Position numbers and translations under genes: made by a program
Part shown: one piece after another, positions 2,782 to 4,776 of the stretch
How the letters are laid out: each line of letters opens with the position of its first letter
Position numbering within the stretch: the stretch's first letter is position 1
Virus record (IMG/VR): IMGVR_UViG_2617271086_000001
Coordinates: 1-4,776 of that record
Strand: one strand, 5' to 3'
From: a virus
Lineage: Duplodnaviria; Heunggongvirae; Uroviricota; Caudoviricetes
Length of the DNA: 4,776 bases
The notes under the pieces: model-generated
Told to the model about the DNA's origin: nothing
The model's database searches: none
Seen by the model: only the letters and a program-made list of their open reading frames with translations

Positions 2782-3585
2782 ATGACCACTATTACCAAAG
2801 AACGTATCGAATTATTCATTAAAAATCCGCTTGAAAACGGGCTTACTCGTGGCGAACAAATGGAACTGGCACGAATTGCACTGGCATCACTGGAACGCGA
2901 ACAGATTCGCCACGAGCATGCCAAATGGTCTGACTCCACATTTGGCTGCGTTGGCCCCATTGGTCCACTGAAACACCTCTCAAAAGAGGCACTGGAAGCC
3001 GCAGCCGAACCAGACGATCTTAGCGAGTGGGCTGATATGCAGTTTCTGTTGTGGGATGCACAGCGCCGTGCTGGCATCAGCGATGCTGAAATTACCGCTG
3101 CTATGGAAGATAAATTGAAGATCAACATGGAGCGCCAGTGGCCTGAACCAAAAGATGGTGAGCCTCGCTTGCACATTAAAGAACCCGGCAACTCTCCGGT
3201 AATTCCGGATGGTTTATCCACGGTATGCGCTGAGGCTTATCAGGTTGTAGGAGTTATGGCAGATGCGCTTGGTGTATTCGGTGATGCAGCAGTACAGAAA
3301 GTTCTGGATAACCTGTCACAGCAAAAACTTGTTCACAGAGATGTGCTGCCGTTCTCGCTTCCGGTGACTCCGGATGGTTGGATAAGCTGTAGTGAGCGAA
3401 TGCCGGATAGCAAAACAGCCGTTCTTGTTGCCAGGGAGTTTGACAGGAAAGGTTACTGGCGAATGAAATGGGCGACTTACATCCCTGGGCATCCTGACGC
3501 TAATGATGGGTGGATAATTCCTGGTGCGTCGTGGAAACCGTCACACTGGATGCCGCTACCAGAGCCGCCGCAGGAGGCGAAATGA
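2782..3585 (+). CDS. MazG-like dATP/dGTP pyrophosphohydrolase domain (DUF550) fused to a C-terminal DUF551 domain
   Basis: 267-aa ORF; N-terminal all-alpha region with acidic clusters (ELARIALASLEREQIRHEH; EALEAAAEPDDLSEWADMQFLLWDAQ; MEDKLKINMERQWPEP) resembling MazG-type NTP pyrophosphatases; C-terminal DGWISCSERMPD...HWMPLPEPP matches the DUF551 signature as recalled; AAGGTGA SD at 7 nt spacing. Confidence 0.7.
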   Translation: MTTITKERIELFIKNPLENGLTRGEQMELARIALASLEREQIRHEHAKWSDSTFGCVGPIGPLKHLSKEALEAAAEPDDLSEWADMQFLLWDAQRRAGISDAEITAAMEDKLKINMERQWPEPKDGEPRLHIKEPGNSPVIPDGLSTVCAEAYQVVGVMADALGVFGDAAVQKVLDNLSQQKLVHRDVLPFSLPVTPDGWISCSERMPDSKTAVLVAREFDRKGYWRMKWATYIPGHPDANDGWIIPGASWKPSHWMPLPEPPQEAK

Positions 3586-3863
3586 TGGACTCCTTCGCAA
3601 AATATACAATTATTGACTGGATGGCCTTCCTTCAGGTTTTGCTCATCTGGTTTTATATGGCTTACAGGAGTGGGCAGTGGATTGTCAGTGTAGCCTGTAG
3701 CAAGGGATGGCGTTGGTGGAACCGAAAGAATAAAAAAGCACTGGCATTGGATTCGTTTTACGAAGCATTCAATCTTAACAGCCTTCAGCCTGGTTCTGTC
3801 ATTGTAGTCACCACTCAAAGCGGCATGACCATTCAGATTCATAAACCAAAAGAGGAAAAATGA
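3582..3863 (+). CDS. Small membrane protein (about 93 aa, one predicted N-terminal transmembrane helix)
   Basis: AGGAGG (3572-3577) upstream of tandem ATGs at 3582 and 3585; ATGA overlap with the DUF550/551 stop; hydrophobic segment YTIIDWMAFLQVLLIWFYMAY followed by a basic stretch WRWWNRKNKK (positive-inside topology). Confidence 0.55.
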   Translation: MMDSFAKYTIIDWMAFLQVLLIWFYMAYRSGQWIVSVACSKGWRWWNRKNKKALALDSFYEAFNLNSLQPGSVIVVTTQSGMTIQIHKPKEEK

Positions 3864-3949
3864 TGTGGCCTATATGTGTTAATTGCGGACGGATGTGCCT
3901 ATCTGGATGGTGCCGAAAGTGCGACAAATGCACGAAGAAAAGACAATAA
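3860..3949 (+). CDS. Cys-rich micropeptide (29 aa, MMWPICVNCGRMCLSGWCRKCDKCTKKRQ), putative zinc-ribbon-like
   Basis: Absent from the ORF track (too short). Tandem ATGs at 3860 and 3863 overlap the upstream stop (TGA 3861-3863); AGAGG at 3851-3855; six Cys including a CxxC pair and a C-x2-C-x2-C run; followed by a terminator-like hairpin. Confidence 0.35.
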   Translation: MMWPICVNCGRMCLSGWCRKCDKCTKKRQ

Positions 3950-3953
3950 CAAT

Positions 3954-3980
3954 CCTCGCACTCGCGGGGATTTCTTTTAT
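3954..3980 (+). terminator. Putative intrinsic terminator
   Basis: Stem CCTCGC (3954-3959), loop ACTC, stem GCGGGG (3964-3969) with one G-U wobble, then T-rich tract ATTTCTTTTAT; lies right after the micropeptide stop in the only sizeable intergenic gap. Confidence 0.35.
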
Positions 3981-4017
3981 CTGAACTCGCTACGGCGGTT
4001 TTTTATGGAGATGATAA

Positions 4018-4185
4018 ATGCACTTCCGAGTCACAGGTGAATGGAATGGAGAGCCATTCGACAGAGTTATCGAAGCAGAGGACATCAATGACTGCTATAA
4101 CCACTGGATGATATGGGCGCAGATAGCACATGCAGAAGTAACCAATATTCGAATTGAAGAACTGAAAGAACACCAAGCCGCCTGA
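4018..4185 (+). CDS. Hypothetical small protein (55 aa), moron-like
   Basis: ATG 4018 with GGAG (4007-4010) at 7 nt spacing; translation MHFRVTGEWNGEPFDRVIEAEDINDCYNHWMIWAQIAHAEVTNIRIEELKEHQAA; absent from the ORF track; bracketed by two terminator-like hairpins. Confidence 0.5.
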   Translation: MHFRVTGEWNGEPFDRVIEAEDINDCYNHWMIWAQIAHAEVTNIRIEELKEHQAA

Positions 4186-4200
4186 TGGCGGTTTCTTTTT
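4175..4200 (+). terminator. Putative intrinsic terminator
   Basis: GC stem CCGCC (4178-4182) / GGCGG (4187-4191), loop TGAT, extended by flanking A-T and G-U pairs, followed by TTTCTTTTT; overlaps the stop codon of the 55-aa ORF. Confidence 0.5.
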
Positions 4201-4215
4201 GCCTGGAGAATTAAG

Positions 4216-4407
4216 ATGACCGATACCAGCCTGATTCCTGAGAAAGAAGTGATGAACAAGCTCGGTGTTTCATCACGTCAGACAATCTGGAACTATACCA
4301 AACGGCACGGATTTCCAAAGCCAGTCAGAACCCACCCCAAATCATACCTTCGTGAAGCTGTTGAGGGGTGGATTCTTAACGGTGGCGTTAATCAGAAATG
4401 CTCCTGA
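4216..4407 (+). CDS. xis: AlpA/Xis-family excisionase / phage transcriptional regulator (helix-turn-helix)
   Basis: 63-aa ORF with GGAG (4204-4207) at 8 nt spacing; EKEVMNKLGVSSRQTIWNYTKRHGFPKPVRTHPKSYLREAVEGWI fits the AlpA/excisionase HTH pattern (ligand-free small DNA binder, conserved FPKP and W); adjacent to the integrase. Confidence 0.8.
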   Translation: MTDTSLIPEKEVMNKLGVSSRQTIWNYTKRHGFPKPVRTHPKSYLREAVEGWILNGGVNQKCS

Positions 4408-4776
4408 TGTGCCAGAACAATTTATCAGCGTGAAGCTCATACGCTTTGCGCTGAGCCTCTATCCAGTCGTGTTTATTGTATACGGACATTATCCCGCCAA
4501 GTTCATGACCGAGCATTCGCTCAGTAACATGAGGCTCGACATTCATCTCGGACAGACGTGTAACAAGCGTTCTTCTGAAATCGTGTGTTCGCCAGTAACC
4601 GAGATCCATCCCTCCCCTTATTCTATTTACGAATCGGTTGGCTGCAGCGATGCTGATCGGTTTGTTTATGTCTTCTCCAGGGAAAAGAACATCATTGTAC
4701 GTTGTCATGGCCTTTTCGAGGAAAGGCTTAATTTGTTCGAAGATTGGACGGCGGATAACATTACCCATCTTGCTAT
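4388..4776 (-). CDS. int: Tyrosine recombinase (phage integrase), C-terminal catalytic region; 5' part lies beyond the window
   Basis: Minus-strand frame open to the window edge; HDFRRT (His-x-x-Arg box), MLGHE and VYNKHDW (catalytic Tyr region) motifs; stop at 4388-4390 (TAA on the minus strand). Confidence 0.9.
   Translation of the reverse strand, partial: SKMGNVIRRPIFEQIKPFLEKAMTTYNDVLFPGEDINKPISIAAANRFVNRIRGGMDLGYWRTHDFRRTLVTRLSEMNVEPHVTERMLGHELGGIMSVYNKHDWIEAQRKAYELHADKLFWHIRSISD

Follow-up and report, generated by a model that had tools for sequence, protein, structure and literature searches.

An orthologue of phage lambda orf55 between predicted terminators is a cassette of a lambdoid early-left operon and probably lacks its own promoter

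The 55-codon open reading frame (ORF) at positions 4018-4185 (+ strand) of the window, as we call the whole stretch of 4,776 nt of viral DNA analysed here, is an orthologue of phage lambda orf55 (lambdap35). It is a conserved gene of an early-left operon, preceded by two predicted terminators and followed by a third one, and is present or absent as a cassette in related loci. The gene and its flanking hairpins have already been catalogued, as lambda orf55 and predicted terminators t3-t5. We consider it probable that orf55 is a promoterless delayed-early gene reached by antitermination, that its terminators insulate xis and that its product is an acidic protein binding to a host component.

The window represents the distal stretch of a lambdoid early-left operon, encoded on the + strand. 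Its 5' part contains the 3' end of ssb, a 3'-5' exonuclease-like gene and small genes including those for DUF7739 and Ead/Ea22. These are followed by a dATP/dGTP pyrophosphohydrolase-DUF551 fusion, a DUF4752 gene, a 29-aa Cys-rich ORF, the 55-aa ORF and a candidate excisionase of the AlpA type. Upstream of position 3950, stops and starts of the genes overlap or abut. Sizeable intergenic spacers occur at just two places of the operon, 68 nt 5' and 30 nt 3' of the 55-aa ORF. The excisionase candidate (4216-4407, +), preceded by a GGAG ribosome-binding site (RBS; 4205-4208, +), matches PHROG 66 (E 1.9e-8) and belongs to the AlpA family according to the HK140 annotation; its match to Pfam Phage_AlpA (PF05930; E 0.0032, 17.8 bits) is under the 21-bit cutoff. 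The 3' part of a tyrosine integrase gene (4388-4776, - strand) was assigned by Pfam Phage_integrase (E 2.5e-10) and by the HK140 annotation. Excisionase and integrase genes are thus convergent with a 20-nt overlap (4388-4407), whereas lambda xis and int are co-directional. Antiterminated pL transcription running beyond xis would be antisense to int in this module.

Identity of the 55-aa ORF was established by tblastn, which aligned all 55 residues with lambdap35 (orf55, NP_597778; NC_001416 29121-29285) at 92.7% identity. In lambda the gene occupies positions 29118-29285, directly upstream of xis, and in the phage 434 record it is named ORF55. The protein also matches phrog_676 (PHROG 676) over residues 1-55 of 55 (E 1.3e-38), a PHROG family without assigned function. 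Searches of Pfam, NCBIfam and PADLOC gave no useful match, the best Pfam hit being DUF3303 at E 0.069, under the cutoff. The ATG start is preceded by a GGAGA RBS (4007-4011, +) located 6 nt upstream, which is kept in relatives with the same leader. A preliminary description of this DNA, made from the sequence alone, had recognised this ORF and its own Shine-Dalgarno sequence (SD), and both are indeed present. In the literature, the exo-xis region is described as transcribed from pL, with orf55 as its last ORF (PMC3824215, PMC5575149). The lambda CRISPRi essentiality map skipped it because it has no PAM site (PMC10695390).

To describe conservation, we collected 84 loci (80 viral contigs, three phage records and the window) with 53 distinct coding sequences. 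The preliminary description had named disruption or lack of conservation in related prophages as evidence against its reading; orf55 is 168 nt long and intact in all 53 variants. Variable sites are distributed over the three codon positions as 12/3/20, and the pooled pN/pS of the 53 variants is about 0.22. The ORF is a real gene under purifying selection. Further, the cassette of hairpin, gene and hairpin was found at a coverage of at least 80% in 2174 of 5426 complete Escherichia coli genomes (about 40%), at up to eight places per genome. Divergent homologues (33-60% identity) occur only in prophages and phages of Enterobacterales, namely of Klebsiella, Yersinia, Citrobacter, Proteus, Morganella, Pectobacterium, Pantoea and Erwinia, and all of them are annotated as hypothetical. 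Larger searches, phmmer against 1.84 billion representatives (51 matches) and a profile search of 5.8 billion sequences (154 matches), retrieved Enterobacterales hypothetical proteins throughout with no relevant Pfam domain and hence provided no functional link. Being among the last uncharacterised lambda genes, so common in E. coli and under purifying selection, orf55 is a worthwhile target.

Two stem-loops, one on each side of the gene, are the top + strand terminator-like sites in a consensus scan of the window. Hairpin 1 (AATCCTCGC-ACTC-GCGGGGATT) has nine pairs at 3951-3972 and is followed by the T-rich tail TCTTTTATCT. It folds at -13.1 kcal/mol (z -4.65), and none of 200 dinucleotide shuffles was as good. 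Hairpin 2 (AAGCCGCC-TGAT-GGCGGTTT, then CTTTTTG; 4175-4200 with the T-run, +) has eight pairs at 4175-4194 and the scan tail CTTTTTGCCT. It folds at -13.0 kcal/mol (z -2.76; 2 of 200 shuffles as good), carries the orf55 stop codon inside its loop and is annotated as a rho-independent terminator in the HK140 record. Hairpins with T-tracts on both sides of the ORF had been noticed in the preliminary description, which missed a third one, hairpin 1b, located between hairpin 1 and the RBS. In total, the window contains nine terminator-like sites as compared with 5.0 +/- 2.3 in shuffled sequences.

Hairpin 1b folds at only -6.9/-7.0 kcal/mol in the window. In 70 of the 84 loci it forms an 8-bp stem of about -11 to -12 kcal/mol, and its variants retain pairing via U-A/U-G changes. 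Its weakness in the window is due to a deletion of 4 nt at 3994-4004, by which the usual GCGAGTTTTGTTTT became GCGGTTTTTT and the predicted energy changed from about -11.9 to -7.0 kcal/mol. The same deletion creates an uninterrupted T6 run.

The three hairpins correspond in relative position to lambda t3, t4 and t5, predicted with ARNold in the exo-xis region (Bloch et al. 2014, PMC4195576, Table 4). Stems of t3 (hairpin 1) and t5 (hairpin 2) are identical in lambda and the window, with one or two T-tract bases differing (a single one in hairpin 1). On the contrary, t4 (hairpin 1b) is degraded in the window by the 4-nt deletion. All three are in silico predictions in both cases, and our literature search retrieved no experimental data on termination at t3/t4/t5 and no usable work on tL2/tL3 or on lysogen transcriptomics at this locus. 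Resemblance to lambda extends to the 55-codon length, the two-hairpin leader, the 3' hairpin over the stop codon and the site directly upstream of the excisionase gene. Neighbouring genes are different: the window has the 29-aa Cys-rich ORF upstream and the AlpA-type xis with convergent integrase (HK140/Stx-phage 2851 type) downstream, lambda has ea8.5 and the xis-int module with the pI promoter.

We wondered if the hairpins are maintained as structures. Across 13 variants of hairpin 1, 92% of cells are paired and one compensated pair (U-A to A-U) occurs in two sequences; the covariation score was reached by 5 of 500 shuffles, a comparison of low power among such closely related sequences. This may be taken as modest support for a selected structure. 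In some loci, unrelated hairpins replace hairpin 1 ahead of the same T-run. A hairpin with T-run is kept 5' of xis modules even where orf55 does not precede them, CCGCATCAATGCGG replacing CCGCCTGATGGCGG in front of the same lambda-xis leader. Moreover, homologues from Klebsiella (76% identical) and Tbat2_3 (55% identical) have a hairpin with other stems, a T-run and the stop codon in the loop. Hairpin 1 is missing in about 12 of the 84 loci and both upstream hairpins in two, which speaks against strict necessity. Since relatives either retain these hairpins or have others in their place, they appear to exceed chance expectation. The recurrence of a predicted terminator spanning the stop codon in divergent homologues, as read from the sequences, goes beyond the literature consulted.

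Other readings of these structures were also considered. An Rfam search over 3800-4450 gave only a chance-level isrK match (15 bits, cutoff 50 bits). The idea that hairpin 2 works in both directions and also terminates transcription of the convergent int was rejected, as the minus strand has no T-run there. In the minimum free energy fold, the hairpin-1 T-tract pairs with the SD in a weak 5-bp helix containing two G-U pairs.

The 68-nt leader of orf55 is fully used by hairpin 1 with its T-tract (3951-3982, +), hairpin 1b with its T6 run (3983-4004, +) and the RBS. This leaves no space for a promoter, and any mRNA containing the orf55 RBS must have crossed two predicted terminators. The preliminary description saw no sigma70 promoter by eye, and the same came out of a scan for consensus sigma-70 sites, which gave none on either strand of the 4.8-kb window as compared with 6.0 +/- 2.4 in dinucleotide shuffles. 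This suggests that internal promoters are depleted in the early operon.

Comparison of the 84 loci revealed that the block which begins with the upstream stop and hairpin 1 and extends through the T-run of hairpin 2 hardly varies, unlike its neighbours. At least eight different genes, one of them the 29-aa ORF, end at the TAA abutting hairpin 1. At least five different modules occur 3' of the hairpin 2 T-run, namely lambda xis, AlpA-type xis, a gene for a 114-aa HK022p30-like protein and two others. Matches in phage databases share either the region from about 3945 to the end of the window or that from 3850 to about 4205. As blocks of homology start and end at the hairpins, these represent mosaic joints, hairpin 1 the left one and hairpin 2 the right one. 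The leader, composed of hairpin 1, hairpin 1b and GGAGA, runs straight into the 114-aa gene in phage 2851 and in 85 viral contigs; elsewhere, this gene comes after orf55. It follows that orf55 together with hairpin 2 is an indel of about 200 bp. The indel is flanked by the direct repeats GGCGrGTTTTGTTTTATGGAGA and GGCGGTTTTTTATTGGAGA. The discrete unit between terminator hairpins proposed in the preliminary description thus corresponds to a real presence/absence polymorphism between otherwise identical flanks, with the hairpins as its joints. Judged from these alignments, the repeated terminator/RBS units would explain gain and loss of orf55, which is also beyond the literature consulted.

The 114-aa gene (MSDLAMKVLKWQSTGD...; phage 2851 locus 1580-1924 and L085-L164) itself behaves as an alternative or additional cassette. 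It has the same leader as orf55 and, on its 3' side before xis, its own hairpin GCCTCACACTCGATGAGGC and terminator.

The joints raise the question of whether the hairpins are primarily terminators at all. They might be boundary or linker sequences that survive as recombination sites, or 3' stem-loops stabilising processed mRNA. Such a role fits the homology blocks that begin and end at the hairpins and the flanking direct repeats across which orf55 was gained or lost, and antiterminated pL transcription would ignore terminators anyway. However, all three hairpins have the canonical GC stem and T-run on the operon strand only. Moreover, different stems with a T-run occupy the same site, as expected if structure and T-tract are selected, not sequence. 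We therefore regard it as unlikely that termination is not their primary role. The two roles are nevertheless compatible and not mutually exclusive.

Further, we examined the genomic context of orf55 homologues. Every homologue examined is co-directional with, and inside, an early-left operon. The arrangement of the window, with ssb, Ead/Ea22, orf55 and xis on one strand, recurs in lambda, HK140 and Klebsiella. The Klebsiella homologue adjoins Exc-int, and that of Yersinia is two genes from int and overlaps its upstream gene. In other Enterobacteriaceae, homologues lie between a cI-like repressor and kilR/gamL/recT/yqaJ. Those of a Proteus phage, a Morganella phage and Tbat2_3 are found near N, kil and cIII, and an obligatory link between orf55 and xis was rejected for this reason. 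HK140 shares with the window an orf55-AlpA-int module of about 97% identity and has an N-like antiterminator gene and a putative boxA upstream on the same strand.

Transcription complexes from pL that are modified by N at nutL pass intrinsic terminators, whereas unmodified complexes do not. With two predicted terminators before the RBS and a third one over the stop codon, translatable orf55 mRNA must come from upstream read-through. We infer that pL transcription with N-type antitermination, following induction or infection, is its source. In our model, orf55 would close the accessory exo-xis segment of the pL operon as its last gene, would lack a promoter of its own and would be a delayed-early gene, silent as long as the prophage is repressed. 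Terminators would cost nothing to antiterminated transcription and most likely keep transcripts that are not antiterminated, or are spurious, out of xis. In the module found in the window, they may also stop transcripts running antisense into the convergent int. The terminator-plus-RBS units would serve as short repeated homologies at which recombination adds, removes and swaps cassettes. Finally, Orf55 most likely binds a host protein stoichiometrically in early lytic development.

A bolder version of this model can be put forward only tentatively, as it is more apt to be wrong than right. It assumes that orf55 and nearby small genes are promoterless cassettes, each with a unit of terminator 3' arm, T-run and RBS, which are shuffled in the antiterminated operon. 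The terminators would act as an N checkpoint for Orf55 and Xis, and the acidic Orf55 would serve specifically to inhibit a host enzyme handling DNA or RNA.

Homology and structure analysis of the 55-aa protein, proposed in the preliminary description, yielded a confident AlphaFold2 model (pLDDT 93; alignment of 18 sequences) besides the relationship to lambda orf55. The model predicts a beta-beta-alpha-beta arrangement with strands at residues 2-9, 12-19 and 41-49 and a helix at 23-37. Net charge of Orf55 is about -7, and that of most full-length family members ranges from -4 to -8. W9 and E19 are invariant in the family and N10 and D25 near-invariant, within the motif W-N-G-E...I-E-A-E-D-x-x-D. 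Small acidic inhibitor proteins of phages, namely T7 Gp2, phi29/VMY22 p56, AcrIE2 and T4 Dmd, resemble Orf55 as modelled here in length (about 55-65 aa), acidity, a three-stranded sheet on one helix and presumed early expression. The confident model shows Orf55 as a small acidic domain of the type common among phage proteins that inhibit host proteins. As a working model, Orf55 would be a small acidic protein that binds stoichiometrically to a host protein in early lytic growth.

Fold search with the model placed PurS and eL20 above T7 Gp2, which ranked 24th with a score of 4.5; RNA polymerase epsilon scored 4.9, AcrIE2 4.5, p56 4.4 and T4 Dmd 4.0. The modelled fold is generic and no match is decisive. 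Structure search of BFVD gave nothing below E 1e-3, with three Gp2-type inhibitors at E 0.05-0.1, and a profile search against all PDB sequences gave no match at E <= 10.

According to a proposal of Donaldson and colleagues (PMC8614690), Orf55 would bind to RNA polymerase in the manner of Gp2, as an inhibitor contacting the beta-prime jaw and sigma-70 region 1.1 of the host enzyme. Their argument equates N43 and R45 of Orf55 with Gp2 arginine positions that contact the beta-prime jaw, R45 being the counterpart of a critical Gp2 arginine. Our prediction reproduces the fold. However, position 45 is V/E/N/H/D/Q and position 43 N/D/E in divergent members; the residues kept by the family are W9 and E19 and, nearly so, N10 and D25. 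That the arginine underlying this model is not conserved, as indicated by the alignment, goes beyond the literature consulted. Together with the low rank of Gp2 for a generic fold, and with the lack of any sequence or profile match to a solved structure or Pfam family, this weakens the argument. We consider the Gp2-like model to be weakly supported and improbable.

Another proposal that appears doubtful, to a similar degree, is that Orf55 has a part in the block that lambda imposes on the initiation of host chromosome replication and by which the cell cycle becomes synchronised. According to the passages citing Sergueev et al. 2002 (PMC9239242, PMC3824215), this block was mapped to orf73-ea22-ea8.5-orf55. 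The early-operon context, with distant homologues beside the host-takeover genes kil, cIII and gam, would fit such a role. However, the mapping as cited covers a segment of four genes and not orf55 alone, and nothing in sequence or fold points to DnaA or oriC.

The preliminary description compared the locus with morons, i.e. with a promoter-gene-terminator layout. Morons are recognised as obvious additions with GC content unlike that of their neighbours and with their own promoter and terminator, which allow expression from the repressed prophage (Cumby et al. 2012, PMC3594210). As in the morons of Juhala and Hendrix, orf55 is additional DNA separating genes which adjoin each other in related phages and has a predicted 3' terminator. 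Unlike them, it has no consensus sigma-70 promoter and no GC shift and belongs to the early-left, not the late operon, and terminators are found on its upstream side, where a moron has its promoter. The actual layout is terminator-terminator-RBS-gene-terminator. GC content, suggested as a check, is 0.447 over the ORF and 0.40-0.52 in neighbouring windows, so a compositional anomaly was rejected. The suggested defence role found no match in PADLOC.

A true moron, read in the lysogen from a promoter that escaped recognition (being non-consensus or dependent on an alternative sigma factor or on an activator) and serving lysogen fitness, exclusion or defence, would agree with the presence/absence cassette between identical flanks, the own predicted 3' terminator and the wide spread among E. 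coli prophages, but is very improbable given the lack of a sigma-70-like site and of space 3' of the tandem upstream terminators, the GC content and PADLOC result, the distant homologues that sit among N/kil/cIII/gam genes or overlap the upstream gene, and the literature counting orf55 as pL-transcribed (PMC3824215, PMC5575149). The reading of the preliminary description is partly supported: orf55 is a cassette, but is best taken as an ordinary promoterless gene of the early operon and not as a moron. Terminator hairpins flanking a small prophage gene thus do not indicate a moron if the gene sits in an antiterminated early operon. In such an operon, transcription passes intrinsic terminators, and these can build up at the borders of cassettes.

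Several minor observations concern other parts of the window and of the lambda locus. The upstream neighbour of orf55, the 29-aa ORF MMWPICVNCGRMCLSGWCRKCDKCTKKRQ (3860-3949, +), contains six cysteines; it starts at an ATG that overlaps the DUF4752 stop (ATGA) and ends with a TAA abutting hairpin 1. It gave no family match in Pfam, PHROG and NCBIfam searches, recurs 5' of orf55 in about 9 of the 84 loci and could encode a zinc-ribbon micro-protein. The fusion gene is an ORF of 267 aa (2782-3585, +) with the dATP/dGTP pyrophosphohydrolase domain at residues 42-137 and a C-terminal DUF551 at 199-264. At most 74% of the window is found in one place of any complete E. coli genome, which is typical mosaicism. 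In lambda (NC_001416 about 29078-29118; L003 1579-1619), the T-run of the orf55 3' hairpin abuts TTGC-N6-TTGC tetrad repeats TTGCGTGTAATTGC. We take this motif to be the cII site of promoter pI, in which case the t5 hairpin of lambda would lie immediately upstream of pI.
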